Origin: an uncultured Chloroflexia bacterium
GTDB lineage: Bacteria; Chloroflexota; Limnocylindria; Limnocylindrales; CSP1-4
Reading direction: 5' to 3'
Length of the DNA stretch: 64,000 bases
Assembly: GCA_963823925.1 (NCBI GenBank)
Contig: CAWGNI010000007.1
Span: forward strand, 27,333-91,332
A program made the translations under genes and the position numbers. The notes below the pieces were generated by a model that saw only the letters and a list, made by a program, of their open reading frames with translations, was not told the origin of the DNA and did not search any database. Below are positions 1,053 through 42,599 of the stretch, in pieces (the stretch's first letter is position 1; each line of letters starts with the position of its first letter).

Positions 1053-4000
1053 TCACAGGGAATCGAGGGCCGGGGGTTCGATGCCGAGCTGATCGCGGAT
1101 CGAAGTAGCGTAGTGCTCGTATTGCTCTGCCGCGGCATTGTGTGCGCTGCTTGCTTGGTACAGGCGGATCAGCGAAACCTCGATGTTGTCCGCTCCCGGA
1201 TCGATGTCCATCGCGCGTCTCGCCAGCTTGATGCCGCGCTCGAAGTGACCGGTTTCGAGGTCCCGTGTCACCGCTCGTTCGACGACCTCAAGGTATGACG
1301 CATGGAGCCAATCTCGATACGGGGCGGCCCATTCCTCATACTCGAAGTCGAGGGCGAACCGACCGTCGATATGTCTCAACAAGGGTTGGCAACCTGATCC
1401 GGGGTCGGCTCCGGAGGTAGCGCCTTGATCAGCTGTCGACACTCGTTGCTACGACTGGAGATCAGCTCCGGGTCAAGCCAGATGAGATCCGAATCGTGGT
1501 GCAGATATCCCGGCGAGAGGTCGTCGACATAGTTCTCCTCGATCACGCGTCGCAAGAAGTACACGGTCTGGTTGAGCGAATTGACGGCGTCCGGCGGGTC
1601 GAGATCCGGCCATAGCGCGTCGAGGACTTGATCCCGGGTGCTCGACATCTCTGCCTTCGTGAGCAAGAAACATAGGAGAGCGAGGACCTTCCGTCGAATC
1701 GTTGAGCCTGGCATGTGCCGATCTCCGACAACCACGGAGACACGCCCTTGATCTTCCACCGACCACAGGATCGGCAAGTCGCGCGGGCGAGGGCCCGACC
1801 CAAGCGATGAAGCTCCCGGTTGCCGACGATGAAGGCGGGCGAATGATCGAAGCCGCTGGACATCTTGCTTCTGTCCGATCGTCTCCAGCAAGCGGGCGGG
1901 CGGCCGAGGCTAGGCGCACCCGAAGACTCTGAGATGGAATTTCGGAGGACAAACCGCCAGCGTCCGGGGTGGAGTTCCGCCGCGCGCTGGATTGTCGCGA
2001 CTGCCGAAGTGTCGAGCTCGTGAGGCCGGCGGCGAAATCAAGTCCGAAAGCGAGGGTCACATTCCATGGCGATACGGCGCCCATGATGGCGATCGCGGAG
2101 CTCAGGTCGACATTGGAGCCTGAAAGTGCTCCGAGGAGTTCTGCAGCGCGACTCCACCGCGTCGCACCCTGGTCGGTTGCCATCCTCCAGGCCGCATCAG
2201 TGAGACTGCAGACCGGCGGGTCGAGTCGGCAGCGACCGCCAAGTAGGCCGCCGTTACCTGGCGGACGGTCGCGTATCCCATGAGGACGCCTTCGCCTTGC
2301 TTCGACTGATCCCAGGACGGACTGTGCTTCCTTGAGCCGCCGCGGCGAGCAAAGAACCAAGCCGACTGGATGATGTAGTGCGGCCGAGCATAGGCATCGG
2401 AACTGACGTCCAGTGTGCGAAGCATCTGCGCGGCAGCTTCCGGTTCGATGTAGCTGTCCGCCAGACTGCCCTCTCGTAGGCGGCCTCAACCTCGTCAAAA
2501 TTGGCTGCGCGCGAGGATTGCCTCTCGACTCTGGTCGACGAGCCCGAGGAGCGCCAGCGCGTAGCCGCGTGCCATCCATGCTGCTGACAGTTCCATGCTC
2601 GAAGACGTTCCGTCCAATGCCTCGATTGCCGCATCGGCGGCATCGATAGCGCCCTGAGGGTTGTCCTGGATCGTGGACGTCAGTGCGAGGTTGAGCATTG
2701 TCACGCCGTAGTAGTGCGGGTGGACATCGCGCTGGTGGCGAGCCATGGTCCTTAAGGTGGGCCGACATGGAATCGATGCTTCCATCGAAGGTCGCGTCGA
2801 TCATCAGACCTGTGCCTTTGGCGATGAGCCTCAGATGGTCGCTCGACGTTGTCTCGGCGAGCCGTCGTGCGAGGGGTAGAGAGTGTTGACCAAGTCCAGC
2901 CTGGAGATACAGGGTTACCAGGTTCAGCAGGGCATGGTCGCTCTCCTGGGATCCGGGCTCGACCGCCTCAAGGATCGCGTTGAGAGTCTCTGATCGCTGG
3001 TTCGTATTCTCGCCGCTGCATCTGGATTCGCGAGGCAACTAGGCTCAAGATCGGTGATCGCATCGTCATCGGGACGCGCTCGATCTCGTCGGCGGCCATG
3101 GCGTGTTGGCCGCTGCCCATGATCTCCGGGATGGCGCCGGCGATCGTGTTCGAGAGCGATTGGTACTCACCGGCCTCGCGGTAGTGGTAGGCAGCGACGC
3201 GCCAATCGCGTTCCGACGCCGCGTCGGCCACGCGTCTGTGGAGATGCGCGATGGCCGCGTCCCCGATGGTTGCTCGCAGACGGGCCTCCAGGAACTCGCG
3301 TACAAGCGGGTGATATCGCTGCGGGCCGCGCGATGAACGGGGCGCTCTGCTGAGCAGGGTCAGCCGCTCTGCCGCCGCCGTCAACCGGGTGACCTCCGAC
3401 GCTGCGACGTCTGCCGCTACGGCGGCCAGGTCAGGGGTGATGACCTGCAACACGGACGTCCGCATGAGGAAGTCCTGCAGGTCCGCGTCGAGATCGCCGA
3501 CCACCTCCTCGGCGAGGTAGTCGTAGAGCTCCTTGTCGGCCCCGGACAACCCTCGGACGAACCTCCGGGTCTCCGCGGGTGACCGATCCCGAAGGGCGGC
3601 CTGGACGAGTTGGAGTGATGCTGCCCAGCCCTCGGTCCGCGCGGCAACGTCCGCGATCACGTCGGGATCCAGCGTTCGTCCGTATGTCTCCGTGAACAGG
3701 CGGGCGGTTTCGTCGGCGTCGAATCGGAGGTCGTCCGTGCGAAGCTCAGCGAGCTCACCTGAGGCCCGCATCTGGGCGAGCGGGATGGTCGGGGCGCGCC
3801 GGCTGGCGAAGACGATCGATAGCCGCTCTGGCGCCCGGGCGATCAACTCCCTGACGATGAACCGGACATCCGCCGATCCATCCACAAGGTGGAAGTCGTC
3901 GAGGATGAGTGCGGCGCCCTGCTCGGCGATGGTCGGGAGTTCGCGGATGAACACCTCCGTCGCCGAGTCGCGAGTGGGTCCGCCGAGAGCGATGTCAGCC

Positions 4001-6765: not shown

Positions 6766-7416
6766 TCAATCGAGCCGGCGGATGACGCCGATGAGCTTTC
6801 CCTGGATGCGGACATCGTCGTAGAACTGGACCGGGTAGGCGGGGTTGGCCGGTTGCAGCCGGATCTGGTCCTTCTCCTTGAAGAAGCGCTTGAGGGTGAC
6901 GGCGTTCTCTTCCACCTGGGCGACGACGATGTCGCCGTTGCGGGCAGTCGTCTGCGGGCGGATCAGGACGAAGTCGCCATCCGCGATGTGGGCCTCGATC
7001 ATCGAATCGCCGCGCACCCGCAGGACGTAGGCATCGCCACCCGGGGCGAGGACGTCCGGGATCGCCATCGTCTCCGTCGCGTCCTGGTAGGCCTCGATCG
7101 GCCCGCCTGCCGCGATCTCCCCGATGATCGGCACGACCTGTGCGTCCCCGGCCGTCGCCTGGGGGACCAGCTCGCTCGTGAGGCCGAGACGGATGGCCGC
7201 GGTGGGGGTCAGCCGGATGGCCCTCGATTGGGCTGCGCCGCGCTCCAGGTACCCCTCCCGCTCCAGGATCTGGAGGTGATGGTGGACGGCCGAGGTGGAG
7301 GCCAGCCCGACGGCCCGGGCGATCTCGCGGACCGACGGCGGATAGCCGCGCGCCCGCAACGTCGCGGCGATGAAGTCGAGGATCTTGAGCTTGCGTTCGG
7401 CGTCGTGTTTGGTCAC
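6766..7416 (-). CDS. lexA: LexA repressor
   Basis: C-terminal 216 aa of ORF 6766-8037. It contains KILDFIAATLRARGYPPSVREIARAVGLASTSAVHHHLQILEREGYLER (wHTH) and the S24 peptidase part (VRGDSM...GDIVVA...LKRF). I place the start at GTG 7414-7416 because AAGGAGG sits 5 nt upstream. ATG 7435-7437 is the alternative. Confidence 0.9.
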   Translation of the reverse strand: MTKHDAERKLKILDFIAATLRARGYPPSVREIARAVGLASTSAVHHHLQILEREGYLERGAAQSRAIRLTPTAAIRLGLTSELVPQATAGDAQVVPIIGEIAAGGPIEAYQDATETMAIPDVLAPGGDAYVLRVRGDSMIEAHIADGDFVLIRPQTTARNGDIVVAQVEENAVTLKRFFKEKDQIRLQPANPAYPVQFYDDVRIQGKLIGVIRRLD

Positions 7417-7435: not shown

Positions 7436-7463
7436 ATGATAACGAACGGACGTTCGATGTCAA
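7436..7463 (-). promoter_or_regulatory. lexA promoter with SOS (Cheo) box filling the -35/-10 spacer
   Basis: Minus strand reads TTGACA-tCGAACgtccGTTCGt-TATCAT. The -35 is at 7458-7463, the perfect CGAAC-N4-GTTCG box at 7443-7456, and the -10 at 7436-7441. Confidence 0.75.
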
Positions 7464-8489: not shown

Positions 8490-10475
8490 CCCCCGGGACT
8501 CGAAGCGGCTCCTCGCCGCTCCCAGATCGTGACCCCGTCGACGTCGTAGACCGTCTCGAAGAGCGGGCTGTCAGCGAAGTCGGTACCGGGTTCGCCGGGG
8601 CACGGGATCCCGCCGCTCGACAGGACGTAGCGAGCGCCGTAGATCGCCATCCGCTCGGCGGCCACGTCCGCGCCATCGCAATAGATCGCCGTCGTGTCCA
8701 ACTCGCGTGGCGCCGGGTCATAGCCGAGATTCGAAACGTACGGTCCGAAGGTGGTGATCCGGAGGCGCCCGGCGAGGTCAACCGGGCTGTTGATGAAAGC
8801 GTCGGTGACGAAGACGGACCGCTCGGGCGTGTTCGCCGCGATCCATTTGGCGGCCACTTCCTGGGGCAGCGTCAACGCGACGTCGTGCGAGCGCAGGTGC
8901 CATCCGGCGATCAGGGCCGGCGACAGCGCCGACAGACCGATCACGAGGACGATCGCCCAGCTTCGCCATCGATGGATCAGCCAGGCCGCCAGGATGGCCA
9001 CGGCGATCCACATGATCTGGAAGTACTTGTTCATGTCGAACTCGACCGCGCTGGCCACGACGATGTTGGGCACGACGAACAGGGCGACCATCCAGGCGAC
9101 CAGGAACCAGCGTCGGGGCAGGTCGCGGGCCGTCAACGCGGCGACGACCGCCAGCGACGAACGGGATCCCAAGGTTGGTCAGGTAGAAGAACGCGACGGC
9201 AGCGGGACCATCGTCCATCCGCGCCTCGCTCCAGCCCAGGACGAAGCGGAATGACCCGATGTCGCTCTGCCGTCCGATCGCCGCGAGGATGAACGGAGCA
9301 GCGAGGACGATGGGGGCGAGGAACAGGACGGCGTCCCGCCAGACCGACCGCTCCCGCCAGGCTCCCGAGGTCAGGACGTACAACCCGACGATGAGGTAGG
9401 TGGCCGGAAAGGCGAAGAACTGGAACGGGGCGAGGAGTGCGGCCAGGACACCGGCGAGGAGCATGCCCAGCGGTCGCTTGCCGACGGAGGCCACGACGAC
9501 CAGGACGACCGTCACCAGCCCGGGCAGTCCAAGGGTCGTCGCCCGGTGGGGGAGGAAGCCGGTCCCGAAGATCGAGGCGACCTTGAAGAATGGCCAACCG
9601 TCCGCCCAGGTGTTGTCGTAGGACGTCCGGCTGACGAGATGGACGACCCCACCCATCCCCGCGATCACGTCACCGACCAGGCGGATCCAGCCGAGGCCAC
9701 CGCCGAAGCAGACGAGGATCGCGGCGATGGTCGCGACCCGCTGGCGCCCGGTCAGCCGAAGCGCCAGCGCCCACACGACCAGGGCGAGGACCCCGGCGAA
9801 CAGCGCACTCGTGGCGAAGTAGGTGCCGATCAGGTCCACGCCGGCCACGGTCGAGGTGATCGCGCCGTGGAAGTCGGCGAACCAGTGGTAGGTCAGCGGT
9901 TCCCCGGCGAAGTACGGCACGTCCGGCGGGAAGTTGCCCGCCGCGATGCTCGAGCCGATGGCGACGTGGACCAGGAGGTCGCTCCAGTTCCACCCACCCG
10001 CCACCCAACCGTCGGGCGTCGCCACCCAGCCGTTGACCATGAGGACGACGAGGACGGCCAGGCTGGCCGAGATGGCCACGATCCAGGCCGAGGCGTCTGC
10101 CCGGAGAGCGGACATGATCGACCGAAGGGTCGGCCGGGGGAGCGGTTCGAGCCAGCGGTGGTGGCTGCGCGCCACGGCGATCGACGCGAACGCCAGACCT
10201 GCAGCACTGACGATGACCGACTCGCGCCCGAACCCGGTGACCCGCGCCACGACGTCCACGAGATGGGCGGAGACGTACACGCTCGTGACGATCGCCCCAC
10301 CGACGGCGCCCGGAGTCGGCAGGTCGGGCACGACGCGGCGGATCACGATCCAGCCAGGAGCGAAGAACAGGATCGGCCAGATCAGGACGACCGACGTGAT
10401 CGGGATCGCCCAGGCGATCAGCGCGGCCATGACGACGGTCACGATCGCGGCGAGCGTGAACCCACGGGTGGCCAT
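8486..10475 (-). pseudogene. Large polytopic membrane protein (GT-C / PMT-like appearance, family not assigned) with one frame break
   Basis: Two pieces: the frame of ORF 8778-10670 from ATG 10473-10475 ([22 protein letters not shown]...WNWSDLLVHVAIGSSIAAGNFPPDVPYFAGEPLTYHWFADFHG...FFYLTNLGIPF), and ORF 8486-9172 (LAVVAALTARDLPRRWFLVAWMVALFVVPNIV...). They join seamlessly with a 1-nt change near 9150-9165. Could be an assembly indel. Confidence 0.5.
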
Positions 10476-10501
10476 CGCCGCAGGAGGTGTCACAGCGGAC
10501 G

Positions 10502-11822
10502 ATGATAGCGGCCATGACCGAGCGGACCATCCTGCACGTCGACCTCGATGCGTTCTTCGCCGCGGTCGAGCAGCGCGACCGGCCGGAGCTGCGCGGGCGT
10601 CCGGTCGTCGTCGGCGGAGCGGGCGGGGAAGATGCCCGGGGCGTGGTGTCGGCCGCCAGCTACGAGGCACGCCGGTTCGGGATCCACTCGGCGATGTCCC
10701 TGCGCGAGGCGTATCGACGCTGCCCCGATGCCGTCTTCCTGCCGGTCGATGGCCGGCGCTACCAGGCCGCCAGCCGCGACGTCATGAGCATCCTCCGGCG
10801 CTTCACGCCACTCGTCGAACCGATCTCGATCGACGAGGCCTTCCTCGATGTCACGGCCTCGTTCGCCCTGTTCGGTGACGGGCCGCACGATCGGCCGCCG
10901 GATCAAGGGCGAGGTCCAGGCGGAGGTCGGACTGACGGCGTCGGTCGGCGTCGCGAGCACCAAGCTCGTGGCCAAGATCGCATCGGACCTGCGCAAGCCG
11001 GACGGGCTGGTGGTCGTCCCCGTCGGGGAGGAGGCGGCGTTCCTGGCGCCGCTCCCGATCGGCCGTCTGTGGGGTGTCGGCGAGAAGACCGCGGCGGCCC
11101 TGGCCGAGTATTCGGTGCGCACCATCGGCGATCTCGCCGCCCTGCCACCGGACCTCGTCGTACGCCGATTCGGCAAGCACGGAGCGTCACTCGTCGAGCG
11201 CGCCCGCGGCATCGACCCGGATCCGGTCCACGACGGCGATCCGGCGAAGTCGGTCGGTCACGAGCACACGTTCGATGTCGATACGAGCGACCCGGAGGTC
11301 ATCGAGCGAACCCTCCTGGCGATGGCCGAGGGCGTCGCCGGGCGGCTCCGATCGGCCGGGGTCAGGGCGGGCACGGTCACGGTCAAGATCCGAGACGATG
11401 GCTTCCGCACGATCACCCGGCAGCGGACCCTGGCCGAGCCGACCGACCTGACCGACCCGATCTACGCGACCGCGCTCGACCTGGCTCGGCCGGAGCTGCG
11501 CGGGATGCGAGTCCGGCTGCTCGGCGTCACCGCCTCGAACCTCGGGGAGCGCGAACAGCTGGCGCTGTTCGATGCGACCGATCCGCGCCGTCGTCGGGCC
11601 GTCGAGGCGGCCGATTCGCTGCGGCGGCGGTACGGGGAGGGGACCGTCACCCGCGCCCGACTTCTTGGCGCAGGTCTGCCGGCACCGTTCGAACGCGATC
11701 CGCGGAACCCGCTGGATCGTCGGGCCCGTGGCGTTCCGGATGGAAACGACCCATCCGAGCCTCCGTTGCGTGACACCCAAGGTGACACGGAGCTGGACGA
11801 GATTCCACTCGACGAGGCTTGA
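10502..11822 (+). pseudogene. dinB: DNA polymerase IV (Y-family), one frame break
   Basis: [35 protein letters not shown]...[16 protein letters not shown] is in the frame of ORF 10487. It continues as [44 protein letters not shown]...[10 protein letters not shown] in ORF 10848-11822. The junction is at GGGCC near 10870-10880. Start ATG is 10502 or 10514. Confidence 0.8.
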
Positions 11823-11873
11823 CATCGAACACTTGTTCGGTCTAGTCTCCGGTCATAACCGAACAGACGTTCT
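11819..11873 (+). promoter_or_regulatory. Promoter with two LexA (SOS) boxes
   Basis: TTGACA (11819-11824)-tCGAACactTGTTCGgtc-TAGTCT (11843-11848). Box 1 CGAACACTTGTTCG at 11826-11839 lies in the spacer. Box 2 CGAACAGACGTTCT at 11860-11873 lies just past the predicted start site. The layout matches the lexA promoter. Confidence 0.7.
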
Positions 11874-11931
11874 GTCGAACGAGTGCCCCGGACGACACGA
11901 CCCAAGCGCCCCCGGAAAGGAGCCATCCCGC

Positions 11932-12204
11932 ATGGCATTCATCCGAGTCGATCCGGTCCAGGTCCAGGTCCGCACGAACTGGTTCAGCGGTCGCCCGCGA
12001 GAGGTCACCTGGGATGACCAGCGCTGGCCGATCACCCAGGTCATGGCCGTCCGCGAGGAGGCTGCCGCGTACCCGGTCATCAGCGGGCCGCGGACCCTCT
12101 TCGAAGTCGATACACCCCATGCCCGGCTCTCGCTCACGTTCCAGCACCGGTCGCGGCGCTGGACCGTCACGGGGCTGGACGAGGCGCACCGCAAGGCCGC
12201 TTGA
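11932..12204 (+). CDS. Unassigned 90-aa protein under the twin-SOS-box promoter
   Basis: ATG preceded by GGAAAGGAG (11914-11922). Product: MAFIRVDPVQVQVRTNWFSGRPREVTWDDQRWPITQVMAVREEAAAYPVISGPRTLFEVDTPHARLSLTFQHRSRRWTVTGLDEAHRKAA. Third codon positions are G/C-rich. ORF-track entry 11572-12204 starts too early, inside dinB. Confidence 0.6.
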   Translation: MAFIRVDPVQVQVRTNWFSGRPREVTWDDQRWPITQVMAVREEAAAYPVISGPRTLFEVDTPHARLSLTFQHRSRRWTVTGLDEAHRKAA

Positions 12205-12354
12205 TCCCAGGCGGCCGGGACCCTCCCTCCCGGGCTGCCGACCGTCGAGAGTTCGGGGTGGGTGCGCCGGTACCGCGCCCGCCCCGTCCTCCGACTCCTT
12301 CCGCGCTGCGCGACCCTCCGGACCGCGACCCGCCCGCAACCGTACAATCGGCAG

Positions 12355-13053
12355 GTGGAACCCCAAGACACGAGTTTCCGGGACCTGACCGTCGACCAGT
12401 TCGTCGCGCGACTTGCGTCGGCGGACCCGGTACCCGGCGGCGGCAGCGCGTCTGCGATCGCCGGGAGTCTGGGGGCGAGCCTGGTCGCGATGGTCGCTGG
12501 ACTATCCGTCGGCCGCGCGAAGTATGCGGATCACGAGCACCTGCTGCAGTGGGCCGCCGAGGCCGGCCAGCGCCTGGCTGATCGGTTCCTCGTCCTCGCC
12601 GACGACGACTCCGCGGCGTACGGTGGCTTTGCCGCGGCGATGAAGCTCCCGCGCGAGACGGACGAGGAACGCGAATCCCGCGCGCAGGCGCTTCGGGCGG
12701 CCGCCCGAAGCGCGACCGAGGTCCCGTACGCCTGTGTCGAAGCCTGCCTCGAACTCGTACAGATCGCCGAGGCCCTTGCCGGGCGCAGCAATCCGCATGC
12801 CTCGAGCGACCTCGACGTGGCCGCGCTGCTCGGCGAGGCCGCCGCGCGTGGGGCGGCGGCGAACGTCCTGATCAATCTGCCGTCCATCGGTGACCTGGGC
12901 TTCGAGCAGGAGACGATGGAGCGCGTCAGTCGGCTGCTCCATGATGTCGAGCGGCTGGCCTCCGAGACGCATGAAGCGGTCGGCAGTGGACTGGCTCGGG
13001 GACCGATCCCGGCGCCGGATACTGCGCCGGACGCCGACGCCGACCTCGCCTGA
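12355..13053 (+). CDS. Cyclodeaminase/cyclohydrolase family protein (FTCD C-domain-like; formimino-THF cyclodeaminase / methenyl-THF cyclohydrolase)
   Basis: From GTG 12355: [50 protein letters not shown]..., the PxPGGGSAxA signature of this family. TACAAT lies 6 nt upstream of the GTG. Confidence 0.75.
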
Positions 13054-42524: not shown

Positions 42525-42599
42525 GCCGACATAGCTCAGTGGTAGAGCAGCTGTTTCGTAAACAGCAGGTCCTCGGTTCAAATCCGAGTGTCGGCTCCA
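42525..42599 (+). tRNA. tRNA-Thr (anticodon CGU), CCA encoded
   Basis: Manual fold. Acceptor stem GCCGACA/TGTCGGC. D arm GCTC-AGTGGTA-GAGC. Anticodon arm GCTGT-TTCGTAA-ACAGC. T arm CTCGG-TTCAAAT-CCGAG. Discriminator T, then CCA. Confidence 0.95.

Follow-up and report, generated by a model that had tools for sequence, protein, structure and literature searches.

A conserved twin-operator promoter and a candidate new LexA-controlled gene family behind dinB in uncultured Limnocylindria

Outside the model organisms, LexA regulons are small and differ from lineage to lineage, and new damage-response biology tends to come from their lineage-specific members, of which SulA, YneA, SidA, SosA, and ImuA/B are earlier examples. 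In Dehalococcoides, a member of the Chloroflexi, the LexA motif is reportedly GAAC-N4-GTTC, a result ascribed to Fernandez de Henestrosa et al. in 2002. In the present study, a 64-kb stretch of contig CAWGNI010000007.1 from an uncultured Chloroflexia bacterium, hereafter the window, was analysed for a 90-amino-acid (aa) open reading frame (ORF) at 11932-12204 on the + strand, directly behind the DNA polymerase IV (Pol IV) gene dinB, and for the two LexA operators that precede it. The LexA motif of Firmicutes and Actinobacteria is likewise GAAC-N4-GTTC (PMC3323433), and the operators of the dinR/lexA, yneA, and recA promoters of Bacillus subtilis and of the Rv2719c promoter of Mycobacterium tuberculosis are identical in this motif to those found here. 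In LexA promoters of this Gram-positive type the operators lie over the core promoter or start site and lexA is autoregulated through the same box, as in the window, and multiple operators give tight repression. A literature search found nothing on SOS in the class Limnocylindria and no description of a small gene under LexA control behind dinB.

Judged by its layout, the regulatory design at this locus is that of a textbook Gram-positive-type SOS promoter. Taken as a whole, the locus is believed, with a probability of roughly 0.7, to be a self-contained SOS unit in which LexA represses a short-lived effector of a new family, and the 90-aa gene is very probably a new damage-induced gene. The original prediction, which had put the ORF forward as a candidate new SOS effector, gains support from the conservation of the operators, the distant subfamily of the protein included, from purifying selection on the ORF, from the lack of an assigned family for its product, and from the absence of a box before dinB.

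Promoter and operators of the small ORF

The promoter begins within the end of dinB. Its -35 hexamer, TTGACA (11819-11824, + strand), overlaps the dinB stop and is followed by operator 1, CGAACACTTGTTCG (11826-11839, +; core 11827-11838), a perfect 14-mer that lies between the -35 and the -10. The -10 hexamer, TAGTCT (11843-11848, +; consensus TAnnnT), is separated from the -35 by an 18-nucleotide (nt) spacer. Operator 2, CGAACAGACGTTCT (11860-11873, +; core 11861-11872), has an exact GAAC-N4-GTTC core, starts 12 nt past the -10, and spans about +5 to +20 relative to the inferred transcription start. A -35/operator/-10 arrangement with a second box, right after the dinB stop, had been described by the original prediction, and every one of these features was recovered in place. 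A generic promoter scan of the window did not flag this promoter, because the -10 agrees with TATAAT at only 3 of the 6 positions; the hexamer is assigned as the -10 because TAnnnT is conserved at the fixed 18-nt spacing.

Three exact copies of GAAC-N4-GTTC are seen in the window against 0.67 expected, two of them before the small ORF and the third in the promoter of lexA. When one mismatch is allowed in the CGAAC-N4-GTTCG 14-mer, 15 matches are found against 4.3 expected, a number reached by none of 100 shuffles. The lexA gene (6766-7416, -) is identified by the TIGR00498 equivalog model (203.5 bits, against a cut-off of 111) and by the Pfam domains LexA_DNA_bind and Peptidase_S24. Its promoter (7436-7463, -) reads TTGACA-T-CGAACGTCCGTTCG-T-TATCAT, with a single operator (7456-7443; core 7444-7455) and a 16-nt spacer, and a matching lexA promoter was also found at three related loci (L004, L050, and L083). 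Because the lexA promoter carries CGAACGTCCGTTCG, the box is the autoregulatory operator of the host's own LexA. The two promoters had been described as having the same layout; the -35/operator arrangement is indeed shared, but the lexA -10 lies 2 nt closer to its -35 than the -10 of the small ORF. In the window and in L004, lexA and the small ORF are 4.4 kb apart, which places the ORF in the lexA neighbourhood.

Comparisons were made with related loci, which provided 89 distinct upstream regions. Two exact boxes lie within 170 nt in 85 of the 89 regions, and at 88 of the 89 loci dinB is directly upstream of the small ORF and ends inside the -35; it had been proposed to survey whether homologues of the ORF accompany dinB and carry the boxes, and both were found. 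In L059 and L066 both boxes are kept, farther upstream of a longer leader, in L088 the first box is a one-base variant (CGTAC for CGAAC), and the upstream region of L002 is incomplete, ending at a contig edge. The order TTGACA, operator 1, TAnnnT, operator 2 is kept wherever the upstream region is complete, at about 89 loci, 80 of which are species-level Limnocylindria genomes. The strict layout is matched by 81 of the 89 regions examined, with TTGACA as the -35 in 78 and TTGACG in three, and the spacer is 18 nt in all 81.

The half-sites GAAC and GTTC are invariant in the relatives while the central four bases drift (ACCT, GCCT, ACTT, GCAT, and others), the first, second, and sixth positions of the -10 (T, A, and T) are fixed while its inner bases drift, and the distance between the two operators is mostly 34 nt. 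The same promoter design is found in the distant subfamily, the proteins of which are only 31-37 % identical, with a better -10 (TATGAT or TATAAC). A count over the 641 kb of related loci gave 180 exact boxes, of which 174 are in the promoter of the small ORF, three are in lexA promoters, and three are strays. At one locus (L084) two genes, one for an extracytoplasmic function (ECF)-type sigma factor of 182 aa and the other for a product of 516 aa, have been inserted between dinB and the promoter (1960-3880). There, the promoter stays with the small ORF and the last codons of the dinB tail are retained upstream of the -35; since the insertion leaves the promoter with the ORF, the promoter-ORF unit is therefore autonomous. 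It is very likely, from this pattern of conservation, that the twin LexA operators regulate the small ORF.

The 90-aa protein and its family

The ORF (11932-12204, +; stop codon 12202-12204) ends in ...RKAA and encodes a basic, soluble protein, predicted to be all-beta, of an unnamed Limnocylindria-specific family. A Shine-Dalgarno sequence, AGGAG (11918-11922, +), stands 9 nt before the ATG at 11932, and GGAAAGGAGCC is conserved in the alignment of the relatives. Across 75 orthologues, the ratio of non-synonymous to synonymous substitution (dN/dS) is about 0.12, with a dS of about 0.84, and the entropy at third codon positions is four times that at positions 1 and 2. On these figures the small ORF is a real gene under purifying selection, in agreement with its earlier description as an intact, coding-like ORF with a good Shine-Dalgarno sequence.

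Homologues of the protein number 448 at E<=0.01. Among the 120 matches listed, identity is 73-100 % and all the source names given read 'hypothetical'. When 1.84 billion cluster representatives were searched exhaustively with a profile, only 152 clusters (50 % identity) were returned at E<=0.001, many of which are fragments or frameshifted calls. Several hundred further clusters belong to a second large subfamily, with proteins of 86-87 aa that are 31-37 % identical. When one genome per GTDB species was scanned, 174 relatives of the small ORF were found; the best 80 of the 174 are mostly metagenome-assembled genomes labelled Limnocylindria/Limnocylindrales or generically Chloroflexota/Chloroflexia, and a few of these 80 are labelled otherwise (Thermomicrobiales, Anaerolineaceae, and two from the Patescibacteria group). 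No relatives were found on viral contigs, and plasmids gave only chance-level tblastn matches; on both grounds a mobile origin was rejected. Based on these searches, the family is confined to the class Limnocylindria, which is uncultured and from soil.

The mean pairwise protein distance is 0.19 for the small ORF, 0.20 for the C-terminal half of DinB, and 0.32 for FTCD_C, the product of the downstream fchA-like gene. Five residues (V13, R41, E43, P53, and W77) are invariant in both subfamilies and seven more (P8, P22, A46, G52, R54, T61, and R76) are nearly so. Longer homologues that resemble fusions (P0166, P0188, P0212, P0221, P0229, P0237, and others) were set aside as frameshift or read-through gene calls. 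In several public calls (P0166, P0212, P0221, P0244, P0245, and P0260) the operator region has been translated in frame, as '...LDIEHLFGLVSG.NRT.VLSDECPGRHD...', and in frameshifted calls dinB, the small ORF, and fchA have been run together into bogus products of 190-390 aa, an annotation hazard. Likewise, the match to a giant cadherin/RTX adhesin (P0217) was treated as spurious (hhalign probability 0.12), and P0262 has MBG-domain matches only, with no tie to the family.

The AlphaFold2 model has seven strands and is essentially all-beta, with a predicted local distance difference test score (pLDDT) of 80.7; the same topology was obtained with a deeper alignment (pLDDT 75.4). With the pLDDT 80.7 model, Foldseek had no hit at E<=0.001 in either PDB or BFVD, the profile gave nothing below E 0.39 against PDB sequences, and searches of Pfam, NCBIfam, PHROGs, and PADLOC with the window protein and diverse members gave nothing above threshold. 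For DUF6504 (PF20114), the best score of any family member is 16.4 bits (E 0.011), against a gathering cut-off of 24.2; below-threshold matches at E<1 occur in 11 of 80 members, equally often as to the unrelated Peptidase_S6, and the window protein itself has no match to DUF6504 at E<=1. The DUF6504 profile, with a length of 103, is similar in size, and in some members the weak matches span most of the protein; the literature search found no paper on DUF6504/PF20114. The protein had been said to recall, vaguely, short domains near or fused with Y-family or ImuB-type polymerases. This likeness gained no support, the 'fusions' being artefacts and DUF6504 remaining below threshold.

Further candidate relationships were dismissed. 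The window protein matches phrog_7703 and phrog_30446 at E 0.006-0.008, residues 8-81 aligning with internal parts of larger phage proteins; these two PHROGs of unknown function were disregarded, as no other family member reproduces the matches. An internal duplication of the protein halves was rejected (hhalign E 0.13), as was GPRTLF as a clamp-binding motif, which lies in a predicted beta-strand and is GPRLTL or GPRVTL in the distant subfamily. The proteins would, on the available comparisons, constitute a new lineage-specific SOS gene family with no named relative.

The window protein has an isoelectric point of 10.6 (family median 10.9), is hydrophilic, and has no transmembrane segment, its maximum 19-residue hydropathy (KD19) being 0.57. 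Ala-Ala is the C-terminal pair in 235 of 261 family proteins and Val-Ala in seven more. The tails that carry this ending run 9-42 residues past the last conserved Trp and show no other conservation; by locus, the Ala-Ala ending is found at 82 of the 89. The terminal triplets are RAA (109), PAA (30), QAA (24), AAA (19), EAA (16), and LAA (3). A conserved Ala-Ala after a variable tail is most likely an ssrA-type degron, recognized by an AAA+ protease such as ClpXP. SOS proteins are broadly unstable and are substrates of ClpXP and Lon (Neher et al. 2006; Nagashima et al. 2006; both cited in PMC10165496), and UmuD, UmuD', and LexA are protease substrates among them (PMC6590174). No transfer-messenger RNA gene, which would supply the ssrA tag of the lineage for comparison with the Ala-Ala tail, is present in the window.

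Transcript, dinB, and neighbouring genes

Right behind operator 2 there is a near-invariant leader block, GTTCTGTCGAACGAGTGCCCCGGACGAC (11870-11897, +), with a column identity of about 0.9-1.0 across 80 distinct 5' untranslated regions (UTRs). In the relatives the block holds a direct repeat, CGGACGA-N7-CGGACGA. Its invariance contrasts with the near-saturated synonymous sites of the ORF. The block is not conserved in the distant subfamily, and structure in the 5'UTR is weak by RNAalifold (-6.6 kcal/mol). It could be the site of a second regulator or a leader RNA element.

Two hairpins follow the ORF, within 12210-12296. Hairpin A (12210-12239, +) has a C-rich apical loop, CCCUCCC, which is anti-Shine-Dalgarno-like; among 71 distinct relatives, 60 have a C-rich motif inside the loop of a hairpin, compared with 31 of 355 shuffles, and the stems differ between genomes. 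Hairpin B (12254-12286, +) has a 13-bp G+C stem and an invariant loop, CCGGUAC, and is terminator-like except that it has no U-tract. In the alignment, 99 % of its cells are paired and 11 of the 13 pairs show compensatory changes, a level of covariation that is matched by none of 500 shuffles and by no slid control, and its G-U pairs suit RNA of the + strand only. The hairpin B motif occurs once in the window, and 78 of its 83 occurrences in the loci are directly after the ORF. With the stem of hairpin B included, the fold of 12199-12345 has an energy of -71 kcal/mol. The stem is succeeded by GUCCUCCGAC, with no U-tract, and a terminator scan finds nothing there. Two groups that retain the ORF and both operators, the L004-type clade and the distant subfamily, lack the hairpins or have different ones. 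Rfam gave no match for the 5'UTR, the ORF, or the 3'UTR, and no 6C match at E<=10 on 12190-12345.

Downstream, a TACAAT -10 (12343-12348) and the GTG at 12355 that starts the fchA-like FTCD_C gene are 6 nt apart (12343-12357, +). Most relatives, L087, L089, and the distant subfamily among them, have a TA[CT]AAT that precedes the start codon of fchA (GTG or ATG) by a few nt. This gene is followed by folD and fhs in a one-carbon folate operon, which, given these positions, appears to have a separate promoter and a leaderless mRNA in Limnocylindria. The gap from the small ORF to fchA has a median of 183 nt and a minimum of 43 nt; in some genomes, 1-2.6 kb has been inserted between the two, and there the operators stay with the ORF. 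Because a conserved stem-loop follows it and the downstream operon has its own promoter, the small ORF looks monocistronic, and this is most likely the case. The claim that the ORF is the only gene the operators can control is likely to hold, given the hairpin after the ORF and the promoter of fchA, and is weakened by the missing U-tract.

The dinB gene (10514-11822, +; stop TGA 11820-11822) is split by one extra base, and the Pfam domains IMS, IMS_HHH, and IMS_C are found on the two halves. By alignment with L007, L016, and L008, the extra base is at about 10885-10887, outside any homopolymer. The orthologues in relatives are intact and 392-438 aa long, and that of L007 passes the NCBIfam cut-offs for Pol IV. 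This single-base indel is peculiar to this assembly and may be an assembly error; dinB, earlier described as broken, is indeed interrupted in the window, but by one extra base only, in a gene that is intact in relatives. The further claim that dinB has no LexA box of its own holds throughout, as none was found upstream of dinB in the window or at any of 88 related loci.

In the window, a divergent gene for a membrane protein lies only about 38 nt from the start of dinB. Gene content upstream of dinB varies, with large membrane proteins in the window (8778-10476, -) and L001 and an LPG_synthase_TM gene in L004 (3343-4460); the segment from dinB to fhs is constant between relatives. DinB has an acidic C-terminal tail (11790-11822), which ends in ELDEIPLDEA here and in DLDEIPPDDA or MDDLPSDDA in relatives, and the overlap with the -35 fixes the final codons of dinB. 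A D-(D/E)-I-P motif in this tail recalls the C-terminal tip of SSB, and an upstream motif, LPAPFERDP or RRFDFGERP, may be the clamp-binding motif.

Elsewhere in the window there is a cyclic di-GMP-II riboswitch (880-963, -; 65.6 bits, against a gathering score of 53.5) and a single tRNA gene, tRNA-Thr (CGT), at 42525-42599 (+).

Proposed SOS unit and its place among known systems

In the proposed mechanism, LexA would bind both operators in undamaged cells, one filling the spacer of the sigma-70-type promoter and the other just past the start. Bound LexA would occlude RNA polymerase and would also block read-through out of dinB, for which there is no room for a terminator because the dinB stop codon lies in the -35. 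After DNA damage, RecA-stimulated self-cleavage of LexA would free the promoter, and the output would be a monocistronic mRNA of roughly 350 nt, made up of a conserved 75-nt leader, the 90-codon ORF, and the two-hairpin 3'UTR. The Ala-Ala tail would lead to proteolysis, such that the protein would persist only while the promoter is open. The combination of double operators, conserved UTRs, and a degron suggests a product that is harmful when mistimed.

As to function, the leading guess, held tentatively and at well under even odds, is that the protein serves, when damage permits, as a partner or regulator of Pol IV or of translesion synthesis. In support of a Pol IV link, the gene adjoins dinB at 88 of 89 loci, dinB itself has no box, and the distance matrix of the small protein correlates with that of DinB at r 0.52 (partial 0.39) and with that of FTCD_C at r 0.43 (partial 0.25). 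There is also a precedent, in that UmuD and RecA modulate DinB in Escherichia coli (Godoy et al., cited in PMC6590174).

A number of observations weigh against the SOS unit as proposed, or against its link to Pol IV. The block of dinB, the small ORF, fchA, folD, and fhs is syntenic across the class, so that the adjacency to dinB may reflect inheritance and not function, and the mirror-tree signal is weak, with a small difference between DinB and FTCD_C. No DinB-ORF fusion was found among the database homologues apart from artefacts, and the sequence and structure searches (Pfam, PDB, Foldseek, and PADLOC) gave no relative that hints at function. The non-polar antepenultimate residue of ssrA-type tags (Leu in ssrA) is mostly absent, with Arg, Pro, or Gln in its place. 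In addition, the -10 is weak (3/6), the transcription start is a predicted one, read-through past hairpin B may occur without a U-tract, and the support as a whole consists of sequence and conservation in an uncultured class.

Among the other roles considered for the protein, that of a cytoplasmic SOS checkpoint effector, a SulA analogue that would transiently block division or replication initiation and then be proteolysed, with the dinB adjacency incidental, ranks second, as possible but doubtful. A small LexA-controlled protein with double operators and a putative degron follows the logic of SulA and Lon, the gene is in the lexA neighbourhood both in the window and in L004, and no other recognizable division inhibitor is near lexA in the window; however, the protein resembles neither SulA nor any Pfam family, Foldseek gave no structural match to an FtsZ- or DnaA-binding protein, and the known inhibitors of Gram-positive-type bacteria (YneA, ChiZ, DivS, and SosA) carry a membrane anchor, for which this protein lacks a hydrophobic stretch. 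RecA is commonly modulated by small SOS-induced proteins. A modulator of the SOS signal in the manner of DinI, RecX, or PsiB, binding RecA filaments, LexA, or single-stranded DNA, would fit a very basic protein in which R41, R54, R76, and W77 are conserved and compatible with nucleic-acid binding. It is nonetheless judged improbable, as the searches tied the protein neither by homology nor by fold to DinI, RecX, or a DNA-binding fold, and DinI uses an acidic helix, the opposite charge. SymE is a small, basic, beta-rich SOS-induced protein, and the multilayer control of a protein with these same attributes brings to mind an SOS-induced toxin of the SymE/TisB kind, nucleoid-condensing or membrane-active. 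This is scarcely credible for a core gene that is single-copy and syntenic throughout a class, is not mobile, is absent from viral contigs and plasmids, has no PADLOC match or AbrB-like fold, and has neither an antitoxin gene nor an antisense promoter that could be detected.

Two further explanations place the output outside the protein. The 3'UTR hairpins could act, alone or in a dual-function transcript, as a small RNA (sRNA) that pairs with G-rich ribosome-binding sites, as 6C does, and this may overlap the other explanations. The 6C RNA acts via C-rich loops (PMC6486639), and in Corynebacterium glutamicum it is about twofold up with mitomycin C and nearly threefold up without LexA (PMC5014011). 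Hairpin A keeps its CCCUCCC loop on variable stems in 60 of 71 relatives, and the covariation and invariant loop of hairpin B exceed what a plain terminator needs. Yet purifying selection on the ORF and the conserved Shine-Dalgarno sequence and tail mean that the protein is not secondary, the ORF and both operators are kept in the L004-type clade and the distant subfamily without these hairpins, only one of the two loops is C-rich, and Rfam gives no 6C match; an RNA-centred output is on balance rather improbable. That the operators mainly gate fchA-folD-fhs by read-through, supplying more nucleotide precursors after damage with the ORF as a passenger, would be favoured by the short gap between the ORF and fchA and by the lack of a canonical U-tract terminator. 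This is very improbable, though, given the conserved TACAAT 6 nt before the fchA start, which would serve a leaderless and presumably constitutive transcript, the very stable conserved hairpin in between, and the inserts of 1-2.6 kb in several genomes, in which the operators remain with the ORF.

For the self-contained LexA-repressed unit with a short-lived effector, the mechanism is so far consistent with known SOS logic, and there is a modest chance of something mechanistically new. A more far-reaching form of it, considered unlikely, is that the protein founds a new class of SOS effectors with an unseen fold, damage-induced, protease-timed, and nucleic-acid-binding, that licenses or restrains a constitutive Pol IV in Chloroflexota, and that the 3'UTR might double as a C-rich-loop regulatory RNA, in a transcript with two outputs. 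If this is true, the SOS control point for translesion synthesis would move from the polymerase gene to an accessory factor. More generally, in a soil class that is abundant but uncultured, a doubly operated promoter is retained unusually strictly before an orphan protein that is better conserved than its metabolic neighbour FTCD_C/fchA, and an operator-free dinB beside a doubly operated ORF points to an unstudied damage wiring of translesion synthesis or of a checkpoint. As B. subtilis and mycobacteria use exactly this operator, both the regulation and the effect of the protein can be tested in those hosts without culturing the source organism. For annotators, the family, now 'hypothetical' everywhere, is worth a name, and the locus adds a conserved 3'UTR RNA motif.

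Compared with the SOS division inhibitors, the 90-aa protein would share with SulA, YneA, ChiZ, DivS, SosA, and SidA the feature of being a small protein made on LexA cleavage, and, as SulA is removed by Lon and SosA by CtpA, it too is probably proteolysed. It differs in having no sequence or fold similarity to these proteins and no transmembrane or LysM segment, and in being cytoplasmic, basic, and predicted all-beta. The layered control proposed here for a small, basic, beta-rich protein is like that of SymE in E. coli, which is controlled by LexA, an antisense RNA, and Lon; unlike SymE, to which it has no homology, the small ORF has no detected antisense RNA and is a conserved chromosomal core gene and not a sporadic toxin. 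Hairpin A resembles the actinobacterial 6C sRNA (RF01066) in being stable, in its C-rich apical loop, and in belonging to a LexA-tied transcript, although the 3'UTR is part of an mRNA, has one C-rich loop, and belongs to another phylum, and the Rfam model is silent.

UmuD, which acts as UmuD2 or UmuD'2 with UmuC and DinB, is LexA-controlled and encoded beside a Y-family polymerase gene, a position that the small ORF shares along with its predicted LexA control, and its lifetime is set by proteases, as is proposed for the 90-aa protein. The protein has no Pfam match to Peptidase_S24, the UmuD fold, and no Foldseek match in PDB at E<=0.001; it also differs from UmuD in having no self-cleavage site and in being encoded downstream of the polymerase gene, from its own promoter. 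Within the characterized LexA regulons of the Gram-positive type the small ORF has no counterpart. Elsewhere, dinB is a classic SOS gene, whereas here it is dinB that is without a box and its downstream neighbour that has two.

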